This document shows positions 19,872-63,567 of a stretch of DNA of 64,000 nt, in pieces. Numbering within the stretch: the first letter of the stretch is position 1; every line of letters starts with the position of its first letter. Made by a program: the position numbers and the translations under genes. The notes under the pieces are model-generated. The model saw nothing but the letters and a program-made list of their open reading frames with translations. It was not told the origin of the DNA and did not search any database. The stretch lies in NCBI GenBank assembly GCA_001775095.1, contig MFCA01000025.1, positions 181,232-245,231 of the forward strand, given 5' to 3'. The DNA comes from Candidatus Curtissbacteria bacterium RIFOXYA1_FULL_41_14. Lineage in GTDB: Bacteria; Patescibacteriota; Microgenomatia; Curtissbacterales; GWA2-41-24.

Positions 19872-20024
19872 GAATTCAAAATTTCTAATTTCTAAATCCT
19901 AAATCCTAAATAAATCCAAATATCAAAATACAAAATACAAAATAATTTTAGTGCAAATTCCCCTTTTTTGCACATTTGAATTTTGAAATTGTTTAGAGTT
20001 TAGAATTTAGAGTTTAGGATTTGA
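19872..20024. repeat. AT-rich quasi-palindromic intergenic element (AAATCCTAAA / TTTAGGATTT units around a central hairpin)
   Basis: Left arm ctaaatcctaaatcctaaat..., central hairpin gtgcaaa-ttcccctt-tttgcac, and right arm tttagagtttagaatttagagtttaggattt, which is the imperfect reverse complement of the left arm. Confidence 0.55.
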
Positions 20025-20465: not shown

Positions 20466-22382
20466 TTACTCTTTGACTACTTCGCCTTCCTGAACTTCAC
20501 CGGTGTCGCTGTCTGCTTTTGCTTTAGCCTCTTCTGTTTGCCCGTCCGGCTCTTTTGGCTCTTCTGGCCCCTTTGTACCTTCTGGTTCTTGTTTTTGATA
20601 CATCGACTCGCCTATTTTGGAAAGAACGCTGGAAAGCTCTTCACTTTTAGTTTTGACCTCATCAATCGGAGCAGATGATTCGATTTCTTTAAGAGCTTTA
20701 ATCTTTTCTTCAACCTCAGTCTTAACATCTGCCGGAACCTTGTCCCCGGCATCTTTAAGCGCTTTTTCGGCCTGATAAACTAAAGCATCGGCCCGGTTTC
20801 TGGTTTCTGTCTCTTCTTTTTTAGTTTCATCCTCTTTGGCATGTTCCTCGGCCTCTTTGGTCATCCTTTCAATCTCGTCTTGAGTCAAGCCTGTTGAGCC
20901 GGTAATCTTAATTGATTGTTCTTTATTTGTAGCTTTATCTTTGGCCTTGACGTTTAGAATTCCGTTGGCATCTAGATCAAAAGTGACCTCAACTTGAGGA
21001 ATTCCTCGAGGTGCCGGCGGAATTCCATCAAGAATAAACCGACCGAGTGATTTGTTATCGCTAGCCATTGGCCTTTCTCCCTGAAGAACATTAATTTCAA
21101 CAGAGGTCTGATTATCGGATGCTGTGGAGAAAACTTCTGTTTTGGAAGTCGGAATAGTGGTGTTTCTGGTTATCAGGGGAGTAGAGACAGCTCCCAAAGT
21201 TTCGATTCCAAGAGTTAGAGGCGTGACATCTAGAAGAACCATTTCCTTCATTTCTCCGCCCAAAACTGCTCCTTGAATAGCTGCTCCGACAGCCACAACT
21301 TCATCGGGATTCAAACCCTTATGCGGTTCTTTACCAAAAAAATCTTTAACTTTGGAAATAACAAGCGGCATTCTGGTCATACCGCCAACTAAAATAACTT
21401 CGTCAATCTTTTTGGCATCAAGTTTGGCGTCTTTGAGACAGTCGCGTACCGGGCCAAACGTTTTGTCAACCAATTCACCGATTATCGATTCGAGTTTTGC
21501 CCTTGAAAGCTTAAGCTGCAAATGTTTGGGTCCAGTTTGATCAGCTGTCAAATAGGGAATAGAAATTTCCGTTTCAGCGGTGGTAGAAAGTTCAATTTTA
21601 GCCTTTTCGGCAGCATCTCTTAGCCGCTGCAGCGCTTGTCTGTCTTTGGATATATCGATACCGGACTCTTTCTTAAATTCCTCTGATAAAAATTCGATAA
21701 TTTTCGCATCAAAATCATCTCCGCCAAGATGGGTATCCCCATTAGTTGCCTTAACTTCAAAAACACCCTCTCCAAGTTCCAGAGTCGAAATGTCAAAAGT
21801 TCCGCCGCCAAGATCGTAAACGGCAATAGTATGAGCATGTGCTTTATCAAGACCGTAAGCTAGTGCAGCCGCTGTCGGTTCGTTGATAATTCTCTCGACC
21901 TTAAAACCAGCAATTTCTCCGGCTTGTTTAGTAGCCTGGCGCTGAGAATCATCGAAGTACGCGGGAACAGTGATCACTGCTTGTTCCACCTTACCGCCAA
22001 GATAGCTTTCGGCATCGGCTTTCATTTTGCCCAAGACCATTGCCGAGATTTCCTGGGGGGTATAGTCTTTGCCTTCGACACTGACAACTGCCATGCCATC
22101 GCGACCTTCTTTAATGTCATATGGCAGCCACTTCATGTCCCTTTGAACTTCAGCATCTTTAAATTTGCGGCCCATCAGTCTTTTTATGGAAAAGATGGTA
22201 GTTTTAGGATTAACAACCATCTGGCGTTTGGCGACATCGCCGACGATGTGTTTTACAGGGTCGACAACCGACGGAATGATATTCCTGCCTTCTGCAGAAT
22301 GGATAACTTTAGGTTTCCCGGCTTCAACCACGGCAACTACCGAATTGGTTGTTCCTAAATCGATACCGATGATTTTAGACAT
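20466..22382 (-). CDS. dnaK: Chaperone protein DnaK (Hsp70)
   Basis: [14 protein letters not shown]..., DLGGGTFD, the full NBD and SBD, and a charged C-terminal tail. Confidence 0.97.
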
Positions 22383-27620: not shown

Positions 27621-27814
27621 AGATGAAAGTATAGCAAAGGTGGGGTTAGGTGAGATACGAATTCCTTAAATCCGAAGCACGAAATCCGAAATCCTAAACA
27701 ATATCAAAATCCAAATTACAAAAATTCAAAACTGGAAATTTAGTTTGGAATTTGGAATTTAAAAATTAGAATTTGTTTCGAAATTCGAATTTAGATATTA
27801 GGATTTACCGAATC
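27621..27814. repeat. AT-rich quasi-palindromic intergenic element (same family as 19872-20024)
   Basis: aaatccgaaatcctaaacaatatcaaaatccaaatt ... gaatttggaatttaaaaattagaatttgtttcgaaattcgaatttagatattaggattt. The right half is approximately the reverse complement of the left half. Confidence 0.55.
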
Positions 27815-32255: not shown

Positions 32256-32391
32256 ACTCGAAATTCGAATATCGAAATTCTAAACAATATTTAAATTCAA
32301 ATGATCTAATGACCAAATTTTGAAGCACTCGTATTTCTGAAATTAGAATTTGTTTCGGATTTCGGATTTATGATTTCGAATTTATTGTAAG
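32256..32391. repeat. AT-rich quasi-palindromic element in the divergent trxA/pcrA promoter region (same family)
   Basis: tcgaaattcgaatatcgaaattctaaacaatatttaaattcaaat ... attagaatttgtttcggatttcggatttatgatttcgaattt. Confidence 0.5.
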
Positions 32392-34251
32392 ATGAATCTC
32401 CTTAAGGATTTAGATCCCGCCCAAGTTGAAGCTGTCAAACAAACAGAAGGACCGGTTTTGATTTTGGCTGGGGCGGGCAGTGGAAAAACACGAGTTTTGA
32501 CATATAAAGTCGCCTATTTAATTTCGCAAGGAGTGAGACCAGAAAATATTCTGGCGGTGACCTTCACAAATAAAGCGGCTAATGAGATGAAGGGGAGAGT
32601 CATAAAGTTATTAGTTCATGGTTCACAGTTCACAGACAGAACCCCCACACCTTATGTCGGTACTTTTCATTCCTTTTGCGCAAAGCTGTTGCGAGTCGAA
32701 GGCAAATATATCGGGATCCCTTCCGGTTATCTAATTTATGATGATGATGACAGTTTAAATTTGGTAAAAAATATCATGAATGAAGAAAGCATCTCGTCTA
32801 AAAATTTTCGGCCGAGTTCGATCTTGGCAGCAATTTCATCGGCAAAAAATGAGTTGGTCTCGTCTTCTGATTATGCCCAATTTGCTCACGGTTATTTTGC
32901 GCAAACCGTGGCGACTGTTTACAAGATTTACCAAAAAGAGCTTGTAAAAATTTACGCCTGTGACTTTGACGATCTATTGGTTAAAAGCGTCGAGGTATTC
33001 AGAAGTAATCCGACGATACTTGATAAATGGGCGAAAAGATTCAGTTATGTTCTGGTCGATGAATACCAGGATGTTAATACTGCCCAGTACATTTTGACAA
33101 AACAGCTTGCCAGCGCGCGTGGCAACTTAACTGTTGTCGGGGATGCCTCGCAGGCGATTTATTCTTTTAGGGGAGCCGATTTTCGCAATATCCTGAATTT
33201 TGAGAGGGATTTTCCCAATTCTAAAATATTTAATCTTGAGCAAAACTACCGATCAACACAAATGATTCTTGACGCAGCCAATGCTGTGATTATCCACAAC
33301 AGTTCACATCCGGTTTTAAAACTTTGGACCAAAAATCCGACCGGCGAAAAAATTGCTCTTTTTAATGCCTCAAGTGAAATTGATGAAGCGAATTTTATCG
33401 TCGAGAGGCTTCTCGATGACATAACAAAGAGACACTACCGGAGTGTGCCCCGAAGTAGCAAAGCGCACTCCGGAAGTGAAAACGGGCCGAGATTCTCTGA
33501 TTTTGCTGTTCTTTATAGAACTAATGCCCAGTCAAGAACTGTCGAGGAAGCATTTTTGCATTCCAATATTCCCTATCGGCTTTACGGGGGCGTGCGTTTT
33601 TACGGGCGCAAGGAAGTTAAAGACGTATTGGCTTATCTGCGCCTAATCGCCAACTCCAAGGACAAAATCGCCAAGGACAGAGTCGAAAAATTAGGCAAAA
33701 AACGCTTTGAAAAATTCCAAGAATTGAAAAAGGATCCGCACCTCGAAAAATTCTCACCGATAGAGCTTATTGATAAGGTACTTGAGACAACCGATTATTT
33801 AGCACTTATTGATGACGGTTCTGAGCAGGGCTTAGCACGGGTTGAAAACGTCAAAGAATTAAAATCTGTGGCTGCTGATTTTGAAAATCTTAGCAGCTTT
33901 TTAGAAAATGTGGCTTTGATGGAAGGAATGGTTACACCGGAAAAATCGTACGAGAATAAGGAGGAATCAGACGTAGTAACACTTATGACTATTCATTCTG
34001 CCAAAGGTTTGGAGTTTGACAATGTTTTTATTATAGGTATGGAAGAAGGTTTATTTCCGCATTCGCGAAGTATGCTGGATCCGTCTCAGATTGAGGAGGA
34101 AAGAAGACTTGCCTACGTTGGAATGACGCGGGCTAAAAAGAAACTTTATCTGACTTATGCGACTAACAGATTATACTTCGGAACCCACAGCGCCAATTTA
34201 GTTTCGCGGTTTGTGGTGGATATACCGGAAGAATTAATTACGGCAATTTAG
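32392..34251 (+). CDS. pcrA: UvrD/PcrA-type ATP-dependent DNA helicase with a short repeat-encoded in-frame insertion
   Basis: Walker A AGAGSGKTRVLTYKVAYLI, with helicase motifs through VLYRTNAQSR and the C-terminal GLEFD...MTRAKKKLYL. The insertion is around aa 345-365 (RHYRSVPRSSKAHSGSENGPR). Confidence 0.9.
   Translation: MNLLKDLDPAQVEAVKQTEGPVLILAGAGSGKTRVLTYKVAYLISQGVRPENILAVTFTNKAANEMKGRVIKLLVHGSQFTDRTPTPYVGTFHSFCAKLLRVEGKYIGIPSGYLIYDDDDSLNLVKNIMNEESISSKNFRPSSILAAISSAKNELVSSSDYAQFAHGYFAQTVATVYKIYQKELVKIYACDFDDLLVKSVEVFRSNPTILDKWAKRFSYVLVDEYQDVNTAQYILTKQLASARGNLTVVGDASQAIYSFRGADFRNILNFERDFPNSKIFNLEQNYRSTQMILDAANAVIIHNSSHPVLKLWTKNPTGEKIALFNASSEIDEANFIVERLLDDITKRHYRSVPRSSKAHSGSENGPRFSDFAVLYRTNAQSRTVEEAFLHSNIPYRLYGGVRFYGRKEVKDVLAYLRLIANSKDKIAKDRVEKLGKKRFEKFQELKKDPHLEKFSPIELIDKVLETTDYLALIDDGSEQGLARVENVKELKSVAADFENLSSFLENVALMEGMVTPEKSYENKEESDVVTLMTIHSAKGLEFDNVFIIGMEEGLFPHSRSMLDPSQIEEERRLAYVGMTRAKKKLYLTYATNRLYFGTHSANLVSRFVVDIPEELITAI
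33430..33480. repeat. Palindromic mini-element inside pcrA (CACTACCGGAGTG ... CACTCCGGAAGTG)
   Basis: cactaccggagtg at 33434-33446 and cactccggaagtg at 33466-33478. Same family as the lepA and metG inserts. Confidence 0.6.
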
Positions 34252-39531: not shown

Positions 39532-40122
39532 TTAGGAAATTCTGTAGAGGAAAATTTCGTTTTCTGATTTTAAAGGCTTTTTTTTAGGGAATGCATTAGT
39601 ATTGACCACAATTCGCGCTCCCCTTTTGGCGTTTTGAAAGACGAAATCTTCGAATTTCTGCATGGTTTTTTTGCGGCCGTAGACAAAAATGACATCAGCA
39701 ATTTTAAGATTAGCTTTCCAGAGATTCTGGCGTTTTACGATGACACTCCCTGTCATTCTGGCTTGTCCAGAATCGATTCTGGAGTCGCTTCGCTCCCCAG
39801 AATGACAAGAAGGAAATAGAAAGTAAGCTTTAACTTTGGTAAAGACAATTAAAAATGGATTGATTTCGTAGCCAACAGCGTGGACGCCAGACTTGGCTGC
39901 TGCAAATAAAAGCCGGCCGTCTCCGGAACCAAGATCAACAACAGTCTCGCCCTTTTTAATATTGGCAAGTCTAATAATCGTTCCTATCTTTTCCTTCTTT
40001 GTAGCAACGTAGGGAAGATCTAAGAACAAATCAATGGCAAATAAAAAGAAGGTAATAATGACAAAAAGAAGTAAAAAGATGATGAGTAATAAGAGAACCG
40101 AGATAATGATTATCATAAACAA
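39532..40122 (-). CDS. Membrane-anchored class I SAM-dependent methyltransferase carrying an in-frame repeat insertion
   Basis: N-terminal TM, then VVDLGSGDGRLLFAAAKSGVHAVGYEINPF. A TGTCATTCTGG...CCAGAATGACA element (39751-39807) encodes ...SCHSGERSDSRIDSGQARMTGSV... within the ORF. Confidence 0.6.
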   Translation of the reverse strand: MFMIIIISVLLLLIIFLLLFVIITFFLFAIDLFLDLPYVATKKEKIGTIIRLANIKKGETVVDLGSGDGRLLFAAAKSGVHAVGYEINPFLIVFTKVKAYFLFPSCHSGERSDSRIDSGQARMTGSVIVKRQNLWKANLKIADVIFVYGRKKTMQKFEDFVFQNAKRGARIVVNTNAFPKKKPLKSENEIFLYRIS

Positions 40123-40123
40123 T

Positions 40124-40250
40124 ATCCTATCATCAAATTGACCTAATTGATCTAATATCAGCTAAACTTCATTAGATTTTTAATATTAATTACAATAAAT
40201 AATTGAAGTTTAGCTGATATTAGAAATTAGAGTAATTAGAAATTTATGAC
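40124..40250. repeat. Dispersed ~130-bp repeat, copy 1 (CCTAATTGATCTAAT flank plus an 18-bp-arm hairpin ATATCAGCTAAACTTCA...TGAAGTTTAGCTGATAT)
   Basis: Copy 2 is at 57175-57260 with the same flanks and arms, but the ~30-nt loop is in the reverse-complement orientation. The TTAGAAATTAGAG tail is also shared. Confidence 0.6.
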
Positions 40251-40357
40251 AGATCATTGGATCTTGGCAAGGGAAAAAGGACATATGGTGTTGTATCAGC
40301 AGGTCGCCTTGCGAGGCTTCGCCCTCGCAATGGCGCTCCTCTGATATAGCCGCAATC

Positions 40358-43300
40358 TCAACTTATTTTAGCTAAACTAAATGGACAGATTGCGTTATAA
40401 GCGCAGTAATTGCATGCAGGCACGCGGCCGAAGTATTTGGGATTGGCAACAAAATTGTTGTTTTTTGTGTCCCGGCGGATGTTTTCGGCCGTTTCTAAAA
40501 TTAAATTTTCGGTTTTTTCCAAATCCGCCTTAGTGGGACTGTATGAACCTTCAATCCCCGTTTCTAAAAAATGCAGAGTTACTTTTTCGGGAATAATTTG
40601 ATGACGCTTCCAGTAATTTAGGGCGTAAATAGAAAGTTGTGTTGACTCTTTGGCTTGAGCGTTAGCCCGATCCTCGTCGATATTTTCAGATGATTTATAA
40701 TCTATAATCGTCACTTTACTGCCAAGTCTAATATCTACCCGGTCAAAACGGCCGGTAACAATGACATTTTTTAGGGGAAAATCGAATCTTGCTTCAATCA
40801 GTGTTGGGATATCTTTATTTCTTGCCTCTCGTCTGTAAAATGAGGAAATCGCCAACTTGCCTTGGGCTTTTCGTTTTTCTTCATGCTCAATTGATAAAAA
40901 TCCCTCGCTGTCCCAGGCATTTTCAAATACTTCCAGAACTTGCGGCAGAGTCAAGTTTTTGCCGTTTTTCTTGGATCTTAAGAAGGCGGCAACAGCAGCA
41001 TGCAGTGCCGCGCCGTAAACTATCGCGTGATGACGGAGAATTGGCACACGCAAAATATGGATATAACGATATTTGTAAGCACAGGTCAAATAGTCGTCGA
41101 TTGATCCTTGAGTCAGTTTTAAAACGCTTGTATCAAAAAGAGCTGTCTGAAGACTACGAGCTGGAGTCGGCGCAAATTTTTCGATTTTTTCGACTGGCGA
41201 AAGTCTGGCCGGTGTCGCATCCGTTTTTGGCTTATCTTGAGCCTCCAGAACAAAAGGTGAGACTTTTTTAACTCTCTTGCCGCCGATATCCCTCGAGTGG
41301 GAAAAATACAGTAAATCTTTGGCCCGCGTCATCCCGACATAAAAAAGGCGCCTTTCCTCTTCCTGATGCCAATCGCCTGTTGGCAGTGTTTCTTTGATTA
41401 GTTCTTCGGGAATATCGATTACGTCACCGCGCTGACGTGTTGGAAAATGATCAGAGACCAGATTCACCAGAAAAACAACCCGGAATTCTAAACCTTTGGC
41501 TCCATGAACCGTCATAACATTAACAGCATCCAATTCCGGATCAAATTCAATTGTTGCCGGATCATCGCCTGCCCCACGGATTGCTTCCAGATAATCAACA
41601 AATTGGCTAACTTTCTGGCCGCGGGCAACGTCGGTGAATTCTTTAATCTTGTCGAAAAATTTGGCGATATTTTGAATTTTAATCTGTCCTTCGACTCCTC
41701 CGGTTCTTTCAAGCTTCTTGAGATAACCTGTTCTTTTCAGAAAATCATAAGTAACCCGGCCGACATTTTCACTTCTTCCCAGTTTGATTGACTCCTCAAG
41801 ATCCAAAAGGACTTTATCAATGATTGCTTTTGACTGGTCTGAAATTTCAAGATCATCATGTGAAGCCGAGGCCTGAGGCAGGTTTTTTAGAACATAATAG
41901 AGGGAACGAGTTTTACGACGGGCAAAGGAAGCCAGTTTAATAGCGTCGGTCGGCGGTATTTGGTAAATGTCCGAGGTGATTAAGTTATACAGATTAAGAC
42001 TGTCTTCGAAATCGGAAATTGCGCCTAAAAAAGAAATCAAAAGAGCAATTTCTTCCTGTTGATAAAGGCCTGAGGAGCCGACAAATTTATGGGGAATTCC
42101 TTTCATGTTTAAGGCTCTTAAGAAATGGTCGGCTGCAGCATTGGCACGAACAAGGATGGCAAAATCTTTGTAGTTGTAACGTGTTACTTGTCGCTTGTTA
42201 CGTGTTGCCATTAATTTTTCGATTTCGGAAGCTACAAGATCTGCTTCTTCAGAAATGGTGTCGGCAAATATTTCCTGAGGTGGAATACCTTTTCCTGTTC
42301 TTATTTTACCCCTGGGGTGCGCTGAGTTATGGCCCGGCACACCCCAGGGGTGTATCGATTTGAGTTTTTTGTCGATTCTATTTTGAACTTCGAGTCTGTC
42401 CGGGTCGTTGTGTCTGATTAGTCTATAGGCGCTATCCAAAGTTGGCTGGGTTGAGCGGTAATTTTGAGTCAAAACAACTTGTTTTGCTTTTGGAAAATCT
42501 TTGACGAATTCTAAAATATTGGAAATGGCAGCTCCGCGGAATTTGTAGATAGATTGATCATCATCACCAACGACACAAATATTCTTGTGATTTCTGGCCA
42601 ATATTTTAACCAGTTCATTTTGAGCGTAGTTGGTATCTTGATATTCATCGACCAGAATATATTTAAATTGCTCCTGATATTTACTTAAGATTTTGGGTCT
42701 TTTTTGGAAAAGTTCAATGGTTTTAACAACCTGATCGCCAAAATCCAAAAATCCGGCTTCGTCTTTTAATTTCTCATACATCTCAAAAGCGCCAGCCAGC
42801 TCCTGATATTTCTTTGACTCGATTTTTGACTCTTTGTCTTTAGTCCGCCGGTCTTCGACCCTGAGGCTCAGACCCGAAGGGCTGACGGATTGCGTTAAGC
42901 GTTTAGCGTATAGCGAAAACTCTTTCGGATTTATATTTTCGTCTTTCAGACGCGAAAAAAAAGAAAGGACTGCTGAAATAAATTTTGTCGGATTAGAAAG
43001 AGGCCGCCAGTAATCCAATTGGAACCTAAAAAGATTTTGCTGAAAAAACAATACCTGCTGGGGTCGGGAAAGAATCTTGAAATCCGGTGAAAGACCGATA
43101 TCAAAAGCGTTGTCTCTGAGAATTCGGTCACCAAAGGCATGAAAGGTAGAAATCCAGGTATCGATAAAACCGTATGGGACTAAAATGTCAACTCGTTCTT
43201 CCATTTCACCGGCAGCTTTATCAGTGAAAGTTAAAGCCAAGATTTCTGAGGGTTTGGCCAGTTTCTTTTCGATAATATAGGCGATCCTTCTGGCGATAAC

Positions 43301-49882: not shown

Positions 49883-49942
49883 ACCCTATTCGTCATTCTG
49901 AGCGAAGTCGAGTCCTAATTCGACAAAGCGAGGAATCTTGAC

Positions 49943-50515
49943 TCAATCTAAAAATCTAAAGGTTGCGAGGATTTGGCTCAAATTTTGGCCGGATATATTC
50001 ATTATTCTATCGCTTGAAATAGAAATTATTACATGGCTTTCTGAAATTTTTATGGCTTTTCTACTTGCTACCGTTATTTCTTTAGCGTTAGGATAGTAGT
50101 CTTTTCTTATTTTATCGACTGTATCGCCTTGTGCTCCAAAACCGAATATAAAAACTTCGTTTCCTTTATGATCACCGTCGCTGTGATCTGCTTTTGTACC
50201 TTCCATAAAAAAACTAACGTTTTCTTCTTGAGGAAGCCAGGAGGGACTTTCATAAAACCAGTTAGGAGGATATTTGAAGACAAAGTATTTGTTTTCATAG
50301 ATTTTCCAATTTGCTGTTTCCGCGGAACCATTCGGTTCACGGCCAGCGTCTGAAATTGGACTGGGTTGGGCTTGAACCGACGGTTCGGAACTTGGAGTTG
50401 ATTTGTTTTTGATGTTTTTGAGGAGAGTAGTGTTGAAATAAAGAGTTAATGCCACGCCAAGAGTAATCAGGGCGAGAATAATCATTACCGGAGGAGTTAA
50501 ATATCCCCTTCTCAT
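49943..50515 (-). CDS. Paralog family member 1: secreted/anchored protein with a conserved signal anchor, an ETANWK-YPxxW motif and a C-terminal QILATFRFLD
   Basis: MRRGYLTPPVMIILALITLGVALTLYFNTTLLKNIKNKSTPSSEPS... is nearly identical at DNA level to the N-terminus of 53138..53791. The C-terminal motif is shared with all three paralogs. Confidence 0.6.
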   Translation of the reverse strand: MRRGYLTPPVMIILALITLGVALTLYFNTTLLKNIKNKSTPSSEPSVQAQPSPISDAGREPNGSAETANWKIYENKYFVFKYPPNWFYESPSWLPQEENVSFFMEGTKADHSDGDHKGNEVFIFGFGAQGDTVDKIRKDYYPNAKEITVASRKAIKISESHVIISISSDRIMNISGQNLSQILATFRFLD

Positions 50516-50557
50516 ACTTTCATCATTTCACTTCCGTGAGAGAGAGTCAAAGGAGAC

Positions 50558-50971
50558 TTACAATAATTCCGCGGGGGTAACCGGTAACAGTTTTTCTATT
50601 TTGGAAAAATCAGTGTCATAAGTAACTAGCTTTACATCACTAGGTACTTGAGTGACAATCAAACAGTCTGCATATTTAATATTGTGTTTCTTATAAAGTA
50701 AAAGGGCTCTTCTGGTGTCTGTTTTTTCGATTATTGTTAAATTTCTCAAAGAAATCAGGTTGTCGGTATCAGAAAGCACTTTATCTTTTGGAAATTTGTA
50801 AAGCTTAATCAGTACAAACTGGATTTCCAAAACTACTATATTGGAAGTGTAAGAACGGATTTTTCCTTCTTCTCCGGCTTCAAAAAATTTTTGACATTCT
50901 TCGAATTTTTGTTTGTCGTCAGCAGTTAAAAATCGGATAAAGACGCTCGTGTCTATAAAAACTTTTGTCAT
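50558..50971 (-). CDS. vapC: PIN-domain toxin (VapC-like); start placed at the internal ATG (MTKVFIDTSVF...) just downstream of the antitoxin stop
   Basis: VFIDTSVFIRFLTADD...NIVVLEIQ...ADCLIVTQVPSDVKLVTYDTDF, the PIN acidic residues. The longer track ORF (to 51031) overlaps the antitoxin. Confidence 0.7.
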   Translation of the reverse strand: MTKVFIDTSVFIRFLTADDKQKFEECQKFFEAGEEGKIRSYTSNIVVLEIQFVLIKLYKFPKDKVLSDTDNLISLRNLTIIEKTDTRRALLLYKKHNIKYADCLIVTQVPSDVKLVTYDTDFSKIEKLLPVTPAELL

Positions 50972-50975
50972 TTTC

Positions 50976-51203
50976 TTATCTGGAGTAATCGATGTATTCG
51001 CGAATTTTTTCTGCAGGAATAGGCTTAGCAACTTTGTATTTACCAGCCAGCGACATAAGTTTGGATTTTAATGGTTCGATAATTATTTTTGATTGTTCAA
51101 CCTTTATAAGTGCTCTACCATGTTTTGTAAGCCCTGCTTTCTTGCGGATCGAAACAGGTATGTGGACTTGGAATTTAGGAGTAATTGTGGTTATTGTTTC
51201 CAT
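50976..51203 (-). CDS. vapB: AbrB/SpoVT-type antitoxin (VapB-like)
   Basis: 75 aa; TITPKFQVHIPVSIRKKAGL... resembles a swapped-hairpin AbrB domain. It lies immediately upstream of the PIN gene. Promoter: TTGACA-N17-TACAAT with the inverted repeat TATTGAC...GTCAATA over the -35 (51214-51245). Confidence 0.6.
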   Translation of the reverse strand: METITTITPKFQVHIPVSIRKKAGLTKHGRALIKVEQSKIIIEPLKSKLMSLAGKYKVAKPIPAEKIREYIDYSR

Positions 51204-51319
51204 ATCAATACATATTGTATGTTATTGACTTTTTATTGTCAATAATTAAACAACATCAATTACTTAATTTAATCGAGGAATTTGCTTGCAGTGCTTGCCC
51301 TGAGTTTACCGAAGGGAGA

Positions 51320-52195
51320 TTATTCGAATCTGAAGGTGGAGAGGATTTGGTCAAAAATTTCTTGCCCTTTAAGTATTTCTTTTTCGTCCCGGGATTGAGT
51401 TTCCAATTCTAATATTAGAATCCGCTTAAAATCTTTCGAGAAAAGATCTACAGCAGTGATATGTTCAGAACCTGCGCGAGGAAGCGGTTGAATCCCTTCT
51501 TGCCCATTCACTCTTACAGTCTTTATCGTGTAAGGTAACTGTTCGAAATCATAAAGGTCAGCAAATGGTTTTCCAGTATTATTATTATAATTCCCTTGAT
51601 TTATGAAACTTAATAAATATGCACCTTGTGGGTCTTCTATTTCTTGAACTGACCTACTCCCAAAGATTTGGATAGATTTTTGTGTCCAACTTGTAGGATA
51701 TTTGAAAGAGTACGAATTGTCTTGAGAGGTGTATGTTTTCCAATTTGCAGTTTCGTCGGATTGATTTTGCTCAATAAGCTTTAAAAGTATTTGTTTGTCG
51801 GTGTCATTTATCACACCATCCGCATCTAAATCAGCAAGCGGATGATAATTTTTTTGCCCTCGACTAGTTCCTAAGGCAGTATTAAGTAAATTAAGATCTG
51901 CAACATTACACATTCCATCTGAGTTGACATCGCAAGGTGCAATATCTAACGATTCTTGGTTGATGACTTCGGTAAAAGATTTACCATCAGGGGTTTTACA
52001 TTGTCTAGGGTAGGTTAAAATGATTCGGTTGCCGGCTCTGGCACAATCTTCAAATGAATTTATTGCGGGACTTGGGGTTGGTTGGTTCTTGATGTTTTTG
52101 AGAAGATTGGTGTTGAGGAAAAGAGTTAATGCAACGCCAAATGTAATCAGGGCGAGGATAATAAGTACTGGCGGCGTTAGATATCCCCTTCTCAT
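51320..52195 (-). CDS. Paralog family member 2 with an extra module containing two dockerin-like Ca-binding repeats
   Basis: Same N-terminus (MRRGYLTPPVLIILALITFGVALTLFLNTNLLKNIKNQPTPS) and same C-terminus (FDQILSTFRFE). The middle carries DVNSDGMCNVADLNLL and DLDADGVINDTDKQILLKLI, which follow the dockerin type I DxNxDGxxNxxD pattern. Confidence 0.6.
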   Translation of the reverse strand: MRRGYLTPPVLIILALITFGVALTLFLNTNLLKNIKNQPTPSPAINSFEDCARAGNRIILTYPRQCKTPDGKSFTEVINQESLDIAPCDVNSDGMCNVADLNLLNTALGTSRGQKNYHPLADLDADGVINDTDKQILLKLIEQNQSDETANWKTYTSQDNSYSFKYPTSWTQKSIQIFGSRSVQEIEDPQGAYLLSFINQGNYNNNTGKPFADLYDFEQLPYTIKTVRVNGQEGIQPLPRAGSEHITAVDLFSKDFKRILILELETQSRDEKEILKGQEIFDQILSTFRFE

Positions 52196-52240
52196 ACTTT
52201 CATCATTTCATTTCCTCAGAGAAGAGTCAAAGTGAGGAAG

Positions 52241-52280
52241 AGCCAGAGAGTCAGAAAGTCAGAAAGTCAGAAAGTCAGAG
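52241..52280. repeat. Tandem octamer repeat (AGTCAGAA x4-5) in the leader between the PIN stop and the paralog-2 start
   Basis: agccagag agtcagaa agtcagaa agtcagaa agtcagag. Confidence 0.7.
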
Positions 52281-52283
52281 AGG

Positions 52284-52700
52284 TTAGAGACGAAAAGTTT
52301 CGAAGAGATCTTTTGGTGTTAAAGCAATCGAGGGCTTTAAAAATTCGGCTACTTTTTTGTTTAAAAAGTCTTTTTTATCCAAAGTTACCAAAAAATCAGA
52401 TTTTGATTGTTTTGCTTCGGCTAAAATAACCGCATCTTTTTCGACAATTATCTTTTTCGCTTGTCTGATTAACTCTAAGTCTGGTTTTTGATCTAAAATA
52501 TGGGTTTTCTCTACCAACTTAAAAAAACGCTCAAGTGCATATGACTGCAATTTTTTTCTGATATTTCTTTCAGTTTCGGTCAGAACCAAGTGCGAAACAA
52601 CCAGCTTGATATTTTTATAGGTAAAAAGTTTAGCCGAGCCGCCTGTTGGAGAATTAGCAGCAGTGAATAGAACGCTTGAATCAATAAAGACAGACTTCAT
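52284..52700 (-). CDS. PIN-domain toxin (VapC-like)
   Basis: MKSVFIDSSVLFTAAN...VVSHLVLTETERN...FLVTLDKKDF (PIN). Its start overlaps the antitoxin stop by 1 nt. Confidence 0.7.
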   Translation of the reverse strand: MKSVFIDSSVLFTAANSPTGGSAKLFTYKNIKLVVSHLVLTETERNIRKKLQSYALERFFKLVEKTHILDQKPDLELIRQAKKIIVEKDAVILAEAKQSKSDFLVTLDKKDFLNKKVAEFLKPSIALTPKDLFETFRL

Positions 52701-52963
52701 TATAGTCTATCTTCTTTTTGCCACTTTTCGATTTCCTTTTTAGTGAATTCTCTCGTTAGAGGCAGAAGGGTAGGATCGATAAACGTCTTGCCGTAAATTT
52801 TTCTAATTTCTTCTTCAAGTTTCGTAAGATAATCAATATCGACAAGGGCCGCGCGAGGCGTACCGCCTTTAGTAAGTATGATATATTTTTCCCCTTTGAC
52901 CTTTTGGGTCAGGCTGCTTAAATTGCTTCTGACTTTCGTTATCGGAACGATATCGATATTCAT
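52700..52963 (-). CDS. Phd/YefM-family antitoxin
   Basis: 87 aa; ITKVRSNLSSLTQKVKGEKYIILTKGGTPRAALVDIDYLTKLEE is the Phd/YefM fold pattern. Confidence 0.65.
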   Translation of the reverse strand: MNIDIVPITKVRSNLSSLTQKVKGEKYIILTKGGTPRAALVDIDYLTKLEEEIRKIYGKTFIDPTLLPLTREFTKKEIEKWQKEDRL

Positions 52964-53137
52964 ATTTTAATTATCCAACACGTACAAAAAAATGTCAAGT
53001 ATTATGTACATTATACTGTCATTCTGAGCCTTTCGCCGGTCACTCTGAATCCTTCGATTGTCATTCTGAACGTAGTGAAGAATCTCAGGGTAAACTCCGT
53101 AAAGGGTCTCAAGATAAACTCCGCGAAGAATCTTGAT

Positions 53138-53791
53138 TCAGTCTAAAAATCTGAACGTTGAGAGGATTTGGTCAAAAACTTGCTCATGATTACCCTGAAA
53201 ATCTAAATTGGGATAACTAATCATATATTGATTGCTGTTATGATTAACATAAACTCTAGCTTCTTTTCTGCGGGGTCCTTCGGATTTTTCAGTTGTTATA
53301 TTAACAACACCTTTCTCACCTGCAACTTCGAAACTTGTGAAGGTGTCGTATTTTGTAGATTTTGGTAATGGTCCGTAATCGGGGTCTTCAGGTATTGGTT
53401 GAACATAGACATAAAAATCCGCTGGTAGAACATCACCAAAAAAACAATCTGCAAGTGCCGTTTTATTTACAAAAAGATAGCCTCGAATACCCTTGTCGCA
53501 AGGTGGAGTTTCATTATCGTAAACAAACCAACTGGAAGGGTACTTGATCGAGAACCCCAACTGGGTGTTTGTATATGTTTTCCAATTTGCTGTTTCCGCG
53601 GAATCATTCGGTTCACGGCCAGCGTCTGAAATTGGACTGGGTTGGTCTTGAACCGACGGTTCGGAACTTGGAGTTGATTTGTTTTTGATGTTTTTTAGAA
53701 GATTTGTGTTGAAATAAAGAGTTAATGCCACGCCAAGAGTAATCAGGGCGAGAATAATCATTACCGGAGGAGTTAAATATCCCCTTCTCAT
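53138..53791 (-). CDS. Paralog family member 3 (same signal anchor, ETANWKTY...KYPSSW motif and C-terminal FDQILSTFRFLD)
   Basis: The first ~60 aa are nearly identical to 49943..50515. The central ~120 aa are divergent. Its 3' flank repeats the 3' flank of paralog 1. Confidence 0.6.
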   Translation of the reverse strand: MRRGYLTPPVMIILALITLGVALTLYFNTNLLKNIKNKSTPSSEPSVQDQPSPISDAGREPNDSAETANWKTYTNTQLGFSIKYPSSWFVYDNETPPCDKGIRGYLFVNKTALADCFFGDVLPADFYVYVQPIPEDPDYGPLPKSTKYDTFTSFEVAGEKGVVNITTEKSEGPRRKEARVYVNHNSNQYMISYPNLDFQGNHEQVFDQILSTFRFLD

Positions 53792-53853
53792 ACTTTCATC
53801 ATTTCACTTCCTGTTTTTAAACACAATTGGCATAGTGAGAATCTAATCAATAT

Positions 53854-53916
53854 TGTCATTCCGAACTTGCTTCGGAATCTAACTCCCGAAGTGGGAAGTT
53901 GGAAGTGAGAATGTAG
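53854..53916. repeat. TGTCATTCCG hairpin element (TGTCATTCCGAACTTGCTTCGGAATC ... GTGAGAATGTAG) in the divergent promoter region
   Basis: Inverted repeat ATTCCGAA cttgc TTCGGAAT. Same terminal motif as the elements at 39751, 49886, 53025, 58984 and 63449. Confidence 0.55.
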
Positions 53917-54079
53917 ATATTGTGGTGGGATGTGGGAAGAAAACAAAATCCCACTTCTCATATCATTAATCCTTTAATCCCATTTCTCACCTCTCACTTC
54001 ATAGATTCTGGATCCTGAATCGAGTTCAGGATGACAAAAGGGCATAGGTTTTGGAACCGTTTCATACTATAATTTGCTC

Positions 54080-55567
54080 ATGGTGAAACGAATATACATT
54101 ACTACTGCGATTCCGTACGTTAATGCAGCGCCGCATATTGGTTTTGCTTTGGAGGCCGTGCAGGCGGATTGTCTGGCGCGGTTCTATCGAGCGATTGGCT
54201 ATGACGTTTATTTTTCAACTGGAACGGACGAGAACAGCCTCAAAAATGTCCAGGCAGCGGAAGCTGAGGGTATTCCCGTCCAAAAACTGGTCGATAAATA
54301 CGCCAAACAGTTTGAACATCTGAAAGGGGCTTTAAATCTCTCCTGGGATGTCTTTATCAGAACCAGTAACCAGACACACTTTGTGGGTGCCCAGAAACTA
54401 TGGAGTCTTTGCAACAAAGATATTTATAAGAAGAAATATCGGGGCCTTTATTGCGTTGGCTGTGAATTGTTTTACTCCCCTGGCGAACTGATTGACGGAA
54501 AGTGTCCTGAGCATCAAACGATACCGGAGGAAGTCGAAGAAGAAAATTATTTTTTTGCTCTCTCAAAGTATCAAGAATATCTGGAGAAATTGATTGCCAC
54601 GGATAAATTGCGGATTACGCCGATAAGTCGGAAGAATGAGGTTTTGTCATTTATTAAAAGAGGGCTTGAGGATTTTAGTATTTCAAGATCAGTTGCGAGG
54701 TCAAGAGGCTGGGGAGTACCGGTCCCTGGTGACCAGAGTCAAGTTCAATATGTCTGGTTTGATGCCTTGACTAACTACCTAACAGCACTGGGTTTTGGGA
54801 ATGATGAAACTCTATACAAAAAATATTGGGCTGATTCCCCTAGATCCACTCCAGGAGTGAGCTTAGTTACATCCCGGCACACTCCGGGAGTGAACAAAGA
54901 CCGAGTAACTCGCCTGCATGTCATCGGTAAAGGCATTATCAGATTTCATGCAATCTATTGGCCGGCCATGCTAGCTTCAGCCGGACTTCCCCTGCCAAAT
55001 GAGGAGTTTGTCCATGGCTACATTACAGTAGAAGGACAAAAGATTTCCAAGTCACTTGGAAATGTAATTGATCCTTTCGAATTAACCGAAAAATTTGAGG
55101 TTGATCCTGTCCGCTACTTTCTGCTTAGGGAAATTCCTGCCTGGGGCGATGGTGATTTTTCGATTATCAGATTTAAAGAGCTTTACAATGGCGAACTGGC
55201 CAATGGTTTGGGAAATTTAGTGGCCAGAGTAGCTAGACTTTGTGCGGATGTGAATTTGAATTTACCGTCGAAAAAGAATTTTAAATTTAAAAAAGTGGTC
55301 AGTGACAACCTAAAAAACTTCCGTTTTGATCTTGCGTTACTTTCTCTTTGGGACGATATTTCTTCTCTTGATAAAAAAATAAATGAGGAAAAACCTTGGG
55401 AACTTGAGGGTAAAACCCTGAAAAAAGCAATTTCACCCATTGCCCAACAAATCCGCGAGGTTGCTTTTAATTTAAGTCCGTTTTTACCGGAAACTTCTGA
55501 AAAGATCATTGAACACTTTACTGGCACGGTTAAACAACAAGCTCCGCTCTTTCCCCGCCTTCACTAA
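54080..55567 (+). CDS. metG: Methionine--tRNA ligase (catalytic core) with an in-frame repeat-encoded insertion; likely leaderless (TATAAT at 54068-54073)
   Basis: HIGH motif PHIGFA and KMSKS as KISKSLGN, with a zinc-knuckle-like C..C..C region. The track ORF starts at the TTG at 54074, and the ATG at 54080 is preferred. Insertion: DSPRSTPGVSLVTSRHTPGVNKDRVTR, just before the conserved HVIGKGIIRFH. Confidence 0.9.
   Translation: MVKRIYITTAIPYVNAAPHIGFALEAVQADCLARFYRAIGYDVYFSTGTDENSLKNVQAAEAEGIPVQKLVDKYAKQFEHLKGALNLSWDVFIRTSNQTHFVGAQKLWSLCNKDIYKKKYRGLYCVGCELFYSPGELIDGKCPEHQTIPEEVEEENYFFALSKYQEYLEKLIATDKLRITPISRKNEVLSFIKRGLEDFSISRSVARSRGWGVPVPGDQSQVQYVWFDALTNYLTALGFGNDETLYKKYWADSPRSTPGVSLVTSRHTPGVNKDRVTRLHVIGKGIIRFHAIYWPAMLASAGLPLPNEEFVHGYITVEGQKISKSLGNVIDPFELTEKFEVDPVRYFLLREIPAWGDGDFSIIRFKELYNGELANGLGNLVARVARLCADVNLNLPSKKNFKFKKVVSDNLKNFRFDLALLSLWDDISSLDKKINEEKPWELEGKTLKKAISPIAQQIREVAFNLSPFLPETSEKIIEHFTGTVKQQAPLFPRLH
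54838..54912. repeat. Palindromic mini-element inside metG (CACTCCAGGAGTG ... CACTCCGGGAGTG ... GAGTAACTC)
   Basis: cactccaggagtg at 54847-54859 and cactccgggagtg at 54880-54892. The same 13-mer palindrome occurs in lepA. Confidence 0.65.
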
Positions 55568-56268: not shown

Positions 56269-57170
56269 TGCTAGTTGATAGTCACGCTCATCTAGACTCA
56301 GTCGAGGATCTTGGGACCGTCCTCGGCCATGCCAGGTCTGAGGGAATTAGCGAAATAATTACAGCCGGAACTTCGATTGAATCGAGCAGAAAGTGCGTGG
56401 AAATTGCAGAACAACGCAGAATAGGTACGCGGATATACGCAACGATTGGTATTCACCCTCAAGATGGAGAAAATGAAATAAAGAATCTCGGTTTGTATCA
56501 ATGTATTAATTCATTGATACAAATCACTAAGACTTCTGACAGAGTAATTGGAATTGGGGAAACAGGATTGGATTATTACGAGACAGGCGACACGAAACAA
56601 GTAACAAGTAAGGATGATAAAAAAAATCAGAGAGAATTATTTAGAGAACAGGTAAAACTTGCGGTGCAGCTAAAACTACCGCTTGTCATTCATTGCCGTA
56701 ATGCGTGGGAGGAGACCTTTAGTTTACTGACAAGACATAATCATTATTCTTCGAGTGGAGCGAAGCGGAATCGAGAAGTTCCGATAAAGAAGTTCTCGAC
56801 AAGCCTTTCGACCATGAGCTCAAGACCGAATGGCTCGAACAATAAGTTAACAGGTGTTTTTCATTCATGGACTGGAGATTGGAACGCGGCAAGAAAAGCT
56901 TTAGATCTCGGTTTTTACATCTCTTTTTCCGGAATCGTCACTTTCAAAAATGCTCAAGAAATCCAGGAAGTTGCTCAAAAAGTGCCTCTGGATCGAATAC
57001 TACTGGAGACTGATTCCCCATATCTTTCTCCAGAACCGCTTCGTGGAAAAACAAATGAACCGAAAAATGTTAAAATAGTGGCTCAGTTTGTTGCCGATCT
57101 TCGGCATTTGTCTTTTGAAGAGATAGCGGGAATTACATCGGAAAATGCGGGGAGGTTGTTTGGAATTTGA
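56265..57170 (+). CDS. tatD: TatD-family metal-dependent hydrolase/DNase with a ~35-aa insertion
   Basis: MMLVDSHAHLDS, IGETGLDYY, PLVIHCRNAWEE, and a C-terminal LLETDSPYLSPEP. The insertion (HYSSSGAKRNREVPIKKFSTSLSTMSSRPNGSNNKL) contains DNA related to the GAGCGAAG...GGAATC repeat family (about 56750-56860). Confidence 0.85.
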   Translation: MMLVDSHAHLDSVEDLGTVLGHARSEGISEIITAGTSIESSRKCVEIAEQRRIGTRIYATIGIHPQDGENEIKNLGLYQCINSLIQITKTSDRVIGIGETGLDYYETGDTKQVTSKDDKKNQRELFREQVKLAVQLKLPLVIHCRNAWEETFSLLTRHNHYSSSGAKRNREVPIKKFSTSLSTMSSRPNGSNNKLTGVFHSWTGDWNAARKALDLGFYISFSGIVTFKNAQEIQEVAQKVPLDRILLETDSPYLSPEPLRGKTNEPKNVKIVAQFVADLRHLSFEEIAGITSENAGRLFGI

Positions 57171-57174
57171 ATAA

Positions 57175-57400
57175 TTAACCTAATTGATCTAATTGTTCTA
57201 ATATCAGCTAAACTTCAATTATTGTAATTAATATTAAAAATCTAATGAAGTTTACTGATATATCAGATTCGCCGAAGGCGAAGGCTGATATTAATCTAAA
57301 TAAATCCCAATTAAAAAAATACCCAAAAATAATTTAGTCATTAGTCATTGGGAGTTGGGAATTGATTAGAATAATTAGACTAATTAGAAATTAGAGATTT
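57175..57400. repeat. Dispersed repeat, copy 2 (CCTAATTGATCTAAT...ATATCAGCTAAACTTCA hairpin with the loop inverted relative to copy 1), plus a nested ATATCAG..CTGATAT GC-hairpin and a TTAGAAATTAGAG tail
   Basis: Compare with 40124-40250. Copy 2 adds atatcagattcgccgaaggcgaaggctgatat (nested palindrome TTCGCC-GAA-GGCGAA). Confidence 0.6.
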
Positions 57401-58895: not shown

Positions 58896-59108
58896 AAAGT
58901 ATGGAAGTGGACTCTGCGGTCCTCATCGAGACAGGCTCGATTGCGGGCCTAAGGGTAACTGAAAAGGTATGAATTTTAAGGGAGTCATTCTGTTCCTTGC
59001 TTCGCTCGAAAAATTTCTCGCTACGCAAGCAAATACGCGTGACGGAGAAAGTATAACTTCCCTTGTCAACTTGACTTATCAGTTTTCACTTGGTAAGGTA
59101 CGGACTCC

Positions 59109-63426: not shown

Positions 63427-63435
63427 AACGTATAA

Positions 63436-63547: not shown

Positions 63548-63567
63548 AGGATTTTGGTTTCAGTCCT

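Follow-up and report, generated by a model that had tools for sequence, protein, structure and literature searches.

Hairpin repeats of a Candidatus Curtissbacteria-like genome as probable members of the CGTC-tagged REP superfamily

We propose that the short repeats dispersed in DNA from a Candidatus Curtissbacteria-like (CPR/Patescibacteria) genome are most likely REPs of the CGTC/TGTC-tagged superfamily. The DNA examined was a single stretch of 64 kb (the window), which contains about nine REP units and one variant dimer. The superfamily was described by Di Nocera, De Gregorio & Rocco (2013, BMC Genomics 14:522; PMC3733652). According to that survey, its members carry a CGTC tag (TGTC in many repeats, with CCTC variants too), a stem of 8-9 bp, a loop of 4-5 nt with exceptions, and a 3-nt tail with the consensus CCA. 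Head-to-head dimers with the tags outside, heterodimers included, predominate. Families number tens to thousands of copies per genome and lie mostly between genes near ORF 3' ends; intragenic in-frame dimers encode about 20-30 aa, UvrD-type helicases being among their hosts. The survey gives no associated or known transposase, and the hosts it lists are Proteobacteria, Chlorobi, Bacteroidetes, Spirochaetes and Thermotogae, with CPR absent (PMC3733652).

An earlier note on this DNA had picked out a family opening with GTCATTCYG, and the observation was borne out. Exact matches to the motif number 9 in the 64 kb, against 0.94 +/- 1.0 expected; none of 100 shuffles reached 9, and every match falls within 39.7-63.5 kb. 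A structure scan (GTC, an AT-led stem of at least 7 bp, a loop and the complementary arm; 200 Markov shuffles) found 7 tagged hairpins against 0.73 +/- 0.81 expected, at 39752+, 39806-, 53855+, 54035-, 63450+ and 63544-, and also at 57337, which is likely a chance match. Related loci were retrieved by profile scans of genome and metagenome contigs with a methyltransferase alignment, about nine close Curtissbacteria loci being among the matches listed. When perfect hairpins with stems of 8 bp or more and loops of up to 8 nt were collected from about 286 kb of Curtissbacteria DNA, GTC ranked first of the 64 possible 5' trinucleotides by enrichment (13 against 1.9 expected). Tagged hairpins occurred at 30 per 327 kb in Curtissbacteria loci versus 26 per 1,663 kb in other loci.

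The unit consists of an unpaired 5' (C/T)GTC tag, a stem of 7-8 bp whose first two pairs are A-T and then T-A, a loop, and a C-led 3-nt tail, about 25-35 nt in all. The tag is TGTC at 39751, 39807(-), 53017, 53059, 53854, 54036(-), 63449 and 63545(-), and CGTC at 49891. AT-led 8-bp stems start at 53858, 54012, 63453 and 63522; those at 39755 and 39776 have 7 bp plus a G-T pair, the ATTCTGG units having only 7 perfect pairs. The canonical loop is 4-5 nt (5 at 39752, 53855 and 54035; 4 at 63544), and small secondary hairpins, GAGCGAAGCGA among them, lengthen others (14 nt at 39806, 29 nt at 63450, also at 49891). Tails in the window are CCA (54035, 63544), CTA (53855, 63450) and CGA (39752, 39806). 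These are also the commonest across the Curtissbacteria loci (CTA 9, CCA 8, CGA 6), where GAC, likewise counted 8 times, is probably the tag of an inverted partner and not a tail. A unit may stand alone or be half of a head-to-head dimer with outward tags; three such dimers lie in the window (39751-39807, 53854-54036 and 63449-63545) and further ones in loci L001, L081, L090, L166, L167 and L168. The single units all lie on the + strand, in numbers too small for a test of bias.

The stem sequence varies among copies and genomes while complementarity is kept, as in the covarying pairs ATTCCGAA/TTCGGAAT, ATCCTGAA/TTCAGGAT, ATTCTGAA/TTCAGAAT, ATCCCGAA/TTCGGGAT, ATTCTGG/CCAGAAT and ATTCCCGC/GCGGGAAT; covarying stems are present too in MAG loci labelled Alphaproteobacteria. 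Single-strand DNA folding, compared with shuffles, gave z-scores of -4.1 and -4.5 for the two strands of 39748-39810, -4.8 for 53851-53883, -2.6 for 54005-54041 and -3.8 for 63446-63550. The units at 53854, 54009 and 63519 agree with the published superfamily in every feature compared, and the comparison with sub-families CGTC-1 to -4 concerns geometry alone, not consensus sequences. At the gathering threshold, Rfam returned no family match anywhere in the window. Literature searches with the repeat DNA strings gave nothing beyond primers, no paper joining palindromic elements and Patescibacteria was found, and a search on the candidate phyla radiation and MITEs had a single, unrelated match.

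Table 1. Repeat copies and host gene in the window (hairpins written as tag, stem arm, loop, stem arm, tail)
Feature	Positions	Strand	Sequence or remarks
Head-to-head REP heterodimer	39751-39807		In frame in methyltransferase CDS; 57 nt = 19 codons
Unit B	39751-39776	+	TGTC ATTCTGG cttgt CCAGAAT CGA
Unit A	39807-39773	-	TGTC ATTCTGG ggagcgaagcgact CCAGAAT CGA
Host gene, class I SAM-dependent methyltransferase (DOT1/PrmA-like)	39532-40116	-	Pfam
Degenerate single REP unit	49891-49940	+	CGTC ATTCTGAGCGAAG...GCGAGGAAT CTT; inner TCGA-N-TCGA hairpin
Degenerate REP unit	53017-53053	+	TGTC ATTCTGAG ...14 nt... CTCTGAAT CCT; one stem mismatch
Short-stem-subfamily REP unit	53059-53086	+	TGTC ATTCT gaacgtagtga AGAAT CTC
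Canonical REP unit	53854-53881	+	TGTC ATTCCGAA cttgc TTCGGAAT CTA; stem 8, loop 5
Canonical REP unit	54009-54036	-	TGTC ATCCTGAA ctcga TTCAGGAT CCA; stem 8, loop 5
In-frame TatD/YcfH insert, sister-subfamily dimer	56744-56845	+	About 34 codons, HYSSSGAKRNREVPIKKFSTSLSTMSSRPNGSNNK
Doubtful copy	58983-59045	+	AGTCATTCTG...; without closing arm; fold z = +0.3
REP unit	63449-63500	+	TGTC ATTCCGCA, 29-nt loop, TGCGGAAT CTA
Canonical REP unit	63519-63545	-	TGTC ATTCTCAC gaaa GTGAGAAT CCA; stem 8, loop 4

In agreement with the earlier note, the family is dispersed, with copies in intergenic DNA as well as in-frame copies within genes. Among the intergenic copies, the element placed at 53854-53916 is a real unit, but it ends at 53881, and its inverted partner at 54009-54036 had been overlooked because it reads ATCC instead of ATTC. 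The two form a head-to-head pair with a spacer of about 127 nt, the right-hand unit lying upstream of MetRS and the pair occupying a divergent promoter region. The element reported at 63449-63547 proved to be a head-to-head heterodimer ending at 63545, with a spacer of 18 nt and 8-bp perfect inverted termini; the loop of its left unit contains a second hairpin, CTTGCTC-gccct-GAGCAAG. The copies given as 49886-49942 and 53022-53137 have the tag and a closing GAAT, but they are degenerate: the units at 49891, 53017 and 53059 have 5-bp or mismatched 8-bp stems and long loops, beyond the published ranges for both, and their folding was no better than that of shuffles. We still count all three as family members. 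The first lies between convergent genes, 9 nt past the stop of PBP1A and 3 nt before that of ORF 49943-50515(-); the 49892 unit begins with 16 nt identical to the GTCATTCTGAGCGAAGCGAAGAATC unit that recurs in L002 and L090, and its 3' end is common to the paralogue flank at 53123-53182. The unit at 53059 lies directly downstream of ORF 53138-53791(-) and is followed by a partial unit up to 53137, ending in GCGAAGAATC; its positions 53060-53084 are identical at 24/25 to L090:10533, in another Curtissbacteria locus. The clustering of copies around the paralogue/toxin-antitoxin (TA) locus is due in part to paralogous genes with common conserved 3' ends and flanks. The proposed copy at 58984-59040 has the 5' motif alone, with neither a closing arm nor a significant fold, and is therefore unsupported; the sequence there is either a decayed copy or chance. 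Small ORFs over intergenic copies, for example 58969-59148 and 63404-63634, are probably spurious.

The dimer at 39751-39807 reads TGTCATTCTGG-cttgt-CCAGAATCGATTCTGG-agtcgcttcgctcc-CCAGAATGACA and has perfect 11-bp terminal inverted repeats. The perfect palindrome noted within it earlier is present at 39767-39782, and the inner stem arms of units A and B are just 2 nt apart (CG, 39774-39775). It encodes residues 104-122, CHSGERSDSRIDSGQARMT, of the methyltransferase, which has a membrane helix at its N-terminus. Orthologues without the insert are 173-175 aa long, and the site is empty in the syntenic orthologues L083-L090. The 57-nt dimer is a true in-frame insertion. The AF2 model gives high confidence to the Rossmann core and low confidence to the insert, a surface loop that joins helix 87-100 to strand 124-129 and whose pLDDT falls below 50 over residues 105-119. 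Removal of inserts in the manner of introns or inteins found no support and was rejected; the inserts are stop-free multiples of three that gene callers read through. A peptide search with a 74-aa concatenation of four open frames of the repeat, a query unsuited to a census of in-frame copies, found P0121 as the sole protein.

The TatD insert, which the earlier note had described as carrying a related unit, is indeed related, as a sister subfamily with common loop motifs. Its termini are TTATTCTTCGAG...CTCGAACAATAA, with a degenerate tag, and it has the family's inner GAGCGAAGCG and GACAAGC loop motifs; its fold z-score is -1.8. Nothing in E. coli YcfH corresponds to TatD residues 158-195, the insert falling between aligned blocks. 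Short TatD orthologues are without it, and owing to inserts of this kind orthologue length varies between 256 and 355 aa. The same subfamily occupies the methyltransferase site in L168. A further site, in a UvrD/PDDEXK helicase, is filled in L001, L002 and L168 and empty in the window, so that an in-frame palindromic insert absent from orthologues is found in the methyltransferase, in TatD and, in relatives, in the helicase. In the methyltransferase, as at the YYVLKNL loop of the helicase, different genomes have different subfamilies in the loop. At L167:12221-12283 the loop of one unit has another unit nested in it. The helicase 'NDD', encoded by AATGACGAT, resembles the tag, a suggestive but unsupported observation.

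Chance or codon-driven matching, GTCATTC encoding V-I/H-S motifs common in enzymes, does explain certain matches that we rejected as copies: the one at 31683 falls in the conserved GHSERR motif of triose-phosphate isomerase, seen also in L002, L081, L086 and L089, the one at 56685 in TatD VIHCR, and those in MazE of L083 and at 58284 (a glycosyltransferase CDS) are likewise coding coincidences. It holds just for these and possibly for 58984. As an account of the family it deserves practically no credence and is already refuted for the canonical copies by the shuffle controls, the tag enrichment among hairpins, the significant canonical folds and the near-identical copies in other genomes. Classical MITEs, that is, TIR-bounded deletion derivatives of insertion sequences, moved by a DDE transposase and flanked by target-site duplications, are very unlikely, although small, non-coding, non-autonomous and dispersed elements with presence/absence polymorphism are what bacterial MITEs would provide, and the earlier note had called the repeats MITE-like. 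The complementary termini on which that comparison drew are real in the dimers (8-11 bp, perfect, on 57-97 nt at 39751-39807 and 63449-63545), but the 57-100 nt MITE look comes about because head-to-head dimers of REP units give terminal inverted repeats. The repeated module is one tagged hairpin, also found on its own (53854, 49891, 53059; L090, L167), and the copies are defined by structure and tag, with compensatory stem variation, and not by a common TIR sequence. The target-site duplications and cognate transposase that the note had suggested looking for did not appear at the sites and in the loci compared. The filled methyltransferase site (CCTTCT/element/GGGAGT) shows no flanking direct repeat against the empty site (CACCTTCC^AAGTGT in orthologues), where a duplication of 1-2 bp is possible, the orthologues being diverged; none flanks the helicase sites of L001, L002 and L168. 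There is no PF01797-type or other transposase among the approximately 66 ORFs of the window, none among the annotated genes of L081, L083-85, L167 and L168, and no parent insertion sequence with matching termini (TGTCATTC...) in the window or the fetched loci.

Non-mobile signals selected by the host, such as transcript 3'-end, mRNA-stability or DNA-topology hairpins of convergent or conserved function, would fit the intergenic copies lying 1-10 nt from ORF 3' ends (49891; 53017-53137), as CGTC REPs do, and the compensatory changes that maintain the stems. We nevertheless consider this improbable, given copies in coding regions, in a divergent promoter region (53854-54036) and in both orientations, orthologous sites that are empty in close relatives, and a nested copy. 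Moreover, the left 45 nt of the methyltransferase dimer recur exactly inside an unrelated PF01923 ORF of another genome, L166, and that ORF holds a second, near-identical left unit further along. A functional role of some copies can coexist with mobility. A less remote alternative, though still one we hold to be unlikely, is that each intragenic site records one ancient, vertically inherited insertion, whose sequence was refreshed by gene conversion. The methyltransferase junctions of the window and L167 are identical (CTTCT/TGTCATT...ATGACA/GGGA, slashes marking the junctions) around interiors of different subfamilies, in many orthologues this loop carries peptides of related sequence (...SGQARMT, ...SRQARTI), and between the window and L081 the dimer is identical at 56/57 positions (98%) and the gene at 445/572 (78%). 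Against this, Curtissbacteria with an empty site are scattered among the others, certain occupants (P0005, P0012 and P0020, for example) have unrelated sequences, and the inserts of L081 and P0003, compound and nested, point to repeated events. Such an explanation concerns the history of the sites, not the identity of the family, and is therefore compatible with the repeats being REPs.

Taking the repeats as CGTC-tagged REPs, we inferred mobility from comparative patterns: presence or absence of copies varies at orthologous sites, and near-identical copies turned up in unrelated genes and in related loci, as the earlier note had proposed to look for. An alternative source of the high identity of the intragenic copy across diverged genomes would be gene conversion or selection. 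The repeats would be non-autonomous selfish DNA, whose single-strand hairpin form would be copied by a trans-acting enzyme encoded outside the window. The nearest parallel would be RAYT (Y1-HUH) transposases, which mobilise REPs and REPINs without duplicating the target. Genic insertions would persist only if they are stop-free multiples of 3 nt that fall in a surface loop, and would then add a disordered loop of 19-35 residues to the protein; the element reads xHSG.../...ARMT in frame 1. Intergenic copies near ORF 3' ends may act as putative RNA or DNA hairpins affecting transcript ends. It is a speculative and, in our view, unlikely proposition that CGTC-type REPs still move in Curtissbacteria today and target the same protein loops time after time. 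As a candidate REPtron-like locus we considered L167, where two ORFs lie between inverted REPs at 8386 and 9994; the ORFs have no Pfam match and are paralogous signal-anchored secreted proteins, not nucleases, and the candidate was rejected. So was a pre-existing tag-like target (GTCAT, ATGAC or CGTC): CGTC occurs within about 15 nt at 3/8 empty methyltransferase sites, approximately as by chance.

With CGTC-tagged REPs the repeats share the tag, the A,T-led 8-bp stem, in canonical copies the 4-5 nt loop, the CCA/CTA tail, the head-to-head dimers and heterodimers, a largely intergenic placement near ORF 3' ends, some intragenic in-frame dimers that encode about 20-30 aa, also in UvrD-type helicases, and the lack of an adjacent transposase. 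They differ in the new host phylum, in many loops of 12-44 nt built by secondary hairpins, in one abundant subtype with a 5-bp Watson-Crick stem, and in tails that are often CTA or CGA. Rickettsia conorii RPE-4 corresponds to CGTC-4 and RPE-6 to CGTC-1, as does Neisseria dRS3 to CGTC-1, in the 2013 survey (PMC3733652). Like the repeats, Rickettsia palindromic elements are carried in frame by housekeeping genes, in a genome that is small and reduced, and add surface peptide segments with the fold intact; they belong to intracellular alphaproteobacteria, whereas CPR are free-living or episymbiotic, and the stem and loop sequences differ. RPE-1 is unrelated in sequence; it is said, from work of Ogata et al. 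in 2000, to be about 100-150 bp long, with some inserts reportedly shown to be translated, whereas translation of the inserts here is predicted. The core of dRS3 is ATTCCC-N8-GGGAAT, and it is found in the fetched loci as TGTC ATTCCCGC gaaa GCGGGAAT CCA (L029, L059, L074, L107, L168); the large mosaic intergenic arrays and filamentous-prophage integration sites of dRS3 have no equivalent here. The REPIN/RAYT system (Bertels & Rainey 2011, PMC3116915; Nunvar 2010; Ton-Hoang 2012) is similar in its tagged hairpin, in inverted doublets as the mobile-looking entity, in stems that covary by lineage and in leaving no target-site duplication. Its REPs are tagged with GTAG, unlike the (C/T)GTC found here, and neither the window nor the fetched loci showed a RAYT gene.

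The repeats belong to an already described class and are not a new kind of element, and none of these findings overturns current understanding. What they do is add CPR/Patescibacteria, a phylum missing from the 2013 survey, to the hosts of the CGTC-tagged REP superfamily, and provide another reduced genome with a Rickettsia-like decoration of housekeeping proteins. For annotation, the inserts of 19-35 residues in the methyltransferase, in TatD and in the helicase of relatives are repeat-encoded loops, and not domains, frameshifts or assembly errors. CPR genomes are about 1 Mb in size, and the fetched DNA contained no RAYT; this lineage could therefore expose the mobiliser of CGTC REPs, and very small genomes with apparently recent copies are a convenient place to seek that enzyme. 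Current mobility and loop targeting, if true, could reveal a site-directed 'homing' mode for REPs.

The dispersed repeats of the window are built from a unit in which a (C/T)GTC tag is followed by a stem (AT-Y-C-Y-R-R...), a loop, a complementary arm ending in AT, and a C-led tail (CTA, CCA or CGA). GTCATTCYG, the motif that led the earlier note to propose a family, has nine matches in the window against 0.94 expected, and a scan for GTC-tagged hairpins, whose only requirements were GTC, a perfect AT-led stem of 7 bp or more and a loop, returned 7 sites against 0.73 in shuffles. An unbiased count over about 286 kb of Curtissbacteria DNA put GTC first among the 64 trinucleotides lying 5' of perfect hairpins with a stem of at least 8 and a loop of at most 8 (13 against 1.9 expected). 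TAG came second, probably because it is complementary to CTA, a common tail. In single-strand DNA folding, the canonical copies do much better than shuffles (z -2.6 to -4.8). The stems covary: complementarity is kept though the stem sequence differs among copies and genomes (ATTCCGAA, ATCCTGAA, ATTCTGAA, ATCCCGAA, ATTCTGG, ATTCCCGC, ATCCCGG, ATTCCAGC).

Repeats and associated features of the window (HH dimer, head-to-head pair with tags outside)
Feature	Coordinates	Strand	Details
Canonical REP unit	53854-53881	+	TGTC ATTCCGAA cttgc TTCGGAAT CTA
Canonical REP unit	54009-54036	-	TGTC ATCCTGAA ctcga TTCAGGAT CCA
Canonical REP unit	63519-63545	-	TGTC ATTCTCAC gaaa GTGAGAAT CCA
REP unit, tag and stem kept	39806	-	loop enlarged; ggagcgaagcgact
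REP unit, tag and stem kept	63450		29-nt loop with a second hairpin inside
HH dimer	39751-39807		2 nt between inner stem arms
HH dimer	63449-63545		spacer 18 nt
HH dimer	53854-54036		spacer ~127 nt
TatD insert	~56744-56845		~34 codons
Second palindromic family	33433-33478, 42308-42352, 54848-54892		two CACTCCNGGAGTG palindromes ~20 nt apart
AT-rich palindromic intergenic element, three copies	19872-20024, 27640-27814, 32256-32391		~150 nt; AAATCCGAAATCCTAAAC...GTTTAGGATTTCGGATTT-like
Palindromic repeat, two copies	40129-40240, 57166-57260		~100 nt; TCTAATATCAGCTAAACTTCA ... TGAAGTTTAGCTGATATTAGA
Secreted PsbP_2/dockerin-like paralogues, three	49943-50515, 51320-52195, 53138-53791

Inverted pairing with the tags outside recurs in three window pairs; the one inside the methyltransferase gene reads exactly as in the earlier note; its inverted termini are perfect over 11 bp, and its central palindrome is CCAGAATCGATTCTGG. 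A frequent short variant, GTCATTCTGAGCG(A/C)AGCGAAGAATC, present in loci L002 and L090 of other genomes and at 49892 and 53060 in the window, has a Watson-Crick stem of just 5 bp. Its loop holds GCGAAGC, the very stable DNA mini-hairpin, to which the nearest-neighbour fold model gives no score. Degenerate copies at 49891-49940, 53017-53053 and 53059-53086 were counted as members because of their near-identity to units elsewhere, not because of folding, and part of what 49928-49987 shares with 53123-53182 is due to paralogous secreted-protein genes whose 3' ends and flanks are conserved. The observation of the earlier note is confirmed, with corrected boundaries and one missed unit added (54009-54036); its copy at 58984 found no support. 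Candidates at 58284, 31683 and 56685 were rejected as coding coincidences. About 28 nt past the helicase stop codon, within a longer imperfect palindrome, the hairpin CCA TTGCGAGG gcgaag CCTCGCAA (40309-40330) could be related to the GTCATTGCGAGG REP subfamily, its tag having mutated, or could be a terminator.

The canonical units agree with every geometric criterion of the CGTC-tagged REP superfamily (Di Nocera, De Gregorio & Rocco 2013, PMC3733652). According to that paper, HH dimers predominate, REPs lie mostly near ORF 3' ends, and dimers inside genes code for 20-30 residues, with UvrD-type helicases, other repair genes and tRNA synthetases as notable hosts; members include Rickettsia conorii RPE-4/RPE-6 and Neisseria dRS3, and CPR is not among the five host phyla given there. 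By its geometry the window family joins this superfamily as a new member, hosted by CPR, and its in-frame insertions are RPE-like. The MITE-like label first given to it was apt in part for its behaviour and wrong as to its kind.

In the methyltransferase gene the dimer is a true insertion. Orthologues 173-175 aa long do without it, numerous others have variable inserts at that very loop (protein alignment A1), and the site is empty in the syntenic loci L083-L085 and in L086-L090, a presence/absence polymorphism. The 57 nt add 19 codons, read as CHSGERSDSRIDSGQARMT in the coding orientation, and hand translation left four of the element's six frames open. The insert survives in frame within a disordered loop: in the AlphaFold2 model the Rossmann core is confident, and residues 105-119, between helix 87-100 and strand 124-129, have pLDDT <50. 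The L081 orthologue (P0006) shares ~70% protein identity and 445/572 nt of gene DNA with that of the window, whereas the dimers are identical at 56/57 positions, setting aside a 21-nt secondary insertion in one loop. Near-identical copies also stand in unrelated contexts: the left 45 nt recur exactly in L166, inside a truncated PduO-type adenosyltransferase ORF, with a second, near-identical left unit downstream in the same ORF. This excess of identity, together with the copies in unrelated genes, argues for recent copying, or gene conversion, from copies elsewhere in the genome. In the near-identical strain L082, the 261 nt aligned with 39640-39900 differ only by C to G at one position of the REP stem (GTCATTGTGG), which breaks one base pair and replaces Ser with Cys.

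Other genes are decorated likewise. The TatD insert, which has no counterpart in Escherichia coli YcfH or in short orthologues (alignment A5), was rightly related to the family: its termini (TTATTCTTCGAG...CTCGAACAATAA) and inner motifs (GAGCGAAGCG and GACAAGC) identify a sister subfamily whose four arms have all changed in concert (TGG/CCA to TCGA/TCGA). This subfamily also occupies the methyltransferase loop of L168; that of L167 is filled by a TGTCATTGCGA...TCGCGATGACA subfamily, with junctions identical to those of the window. In the UvrD/PDDEXK helicase, REP dimers follow YYVLKNL in L001, L002 and L168 and are absent there in the window, L003, L004, L081, L083, L089 and L090. Curtissbacteria TatD orthologues vary between 256 and 355 aa in length because repeat-encoded segments sit in at least six separate loops (such as PSTSSGQA, VILRSEATPES...ARMT, SHPEFISGS, KQSLRSS...AGL and SGPPKLTSRLSS...RLEERNRRV), which suggests that several repeat families decorate the proteome widely. 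Units also nest, one lying within another's loop at L167:12221-12283. The UvrD/PDDEXK helicase of the Curtissbacteria locus L168 (5215-9447, 1410 aa) contains an intein (Hint/Intein_splicing matches) besides its REP dimer, and a 90-aa GIY-YIG ORF separates it from the methyltransferase gene.

Further repeats accompany the family. The CACTCCNGGAGTG palindromes lie inside three genes: one for a UvrD helicase, one for the UvrD/PDDEXK helicase (giving the peptide HPWGVPGHNSAHPRG) and one for MetRS (STPGVSLVTSRHTPGV), the in-frame reading being confirmed for the latter two only; PMC3733652 reports the same gene classes as REP-decorated. The three AT-rich copies align with a mean column identity of ~70%, and the element folds into one long hairpin (z = -2.7). 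The TCTAATATCAGCTAAACTTCA ... TGAAGTTTAGCTGATATTAGA repeat, with arms 94-100% identical, is the most MITE-like feature of the window; one copy lies upstream of the REP-bearing methyltransferase gene and the other downstream of the REP-bearing TatD gene. PIN and Phd-PIN toxin-antitoxin genes lie between the secreted paralogues (49943-53791), each of which has a different hairpin repeat in its 3' flank, and comparable REP-flanked secreted paralogues occur at L167:8446-9825. Nine-nucleotide periodic repeats (TTGGCTCTT-like; 16270-16332 and 20537-20599) inside the NusA and DnaK ORFs probably encode low-complexity tails.

The setting is a ~40% G+C stretch of compact housekeeping genes (AlaRS, FtsK, PNPase, IF-2, NusA, DnaK/DnaJ/GrpE, LepA, MurJ, TIM), with two UvrD-type helicases, PBP1A, MetRS, TatD and several PIN/Phd toxin-antitoxin pairs; tRNA and Rfam searches gave no match across it. 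Among named organisms, its proteins find their best relatives in Candidatus Curtissbacteria (CPR/Patescibacteria), and L083-L085 and L167-L168 are syntenic with ~27.8-47.5 kb.

By analogy with GTAG-REPs and RAYT, the units would spread through a single-strand hairpin form by means of a trans-acting enzyme and would insert without target duplication, selection then sieving the intragenic copies so that open, loop-located insertions survive. No transposase was found among the ~66 window ORFs, and no mobilising enzyme is encoded there or among the annotated genes of L081, L083-L085, L167 and L168; two REP-flanked L167 ORFs considered as nucleases proved to be secreted paralogues. The recurrent filling of the same loops could reflect either targeting or an ancient insertion followed by concerted evolution, and the empty sites checked lend no support to a simple tag-like target. 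The chief remaining value of the family is that the REP mobiliser can be looked for here in a small genome.
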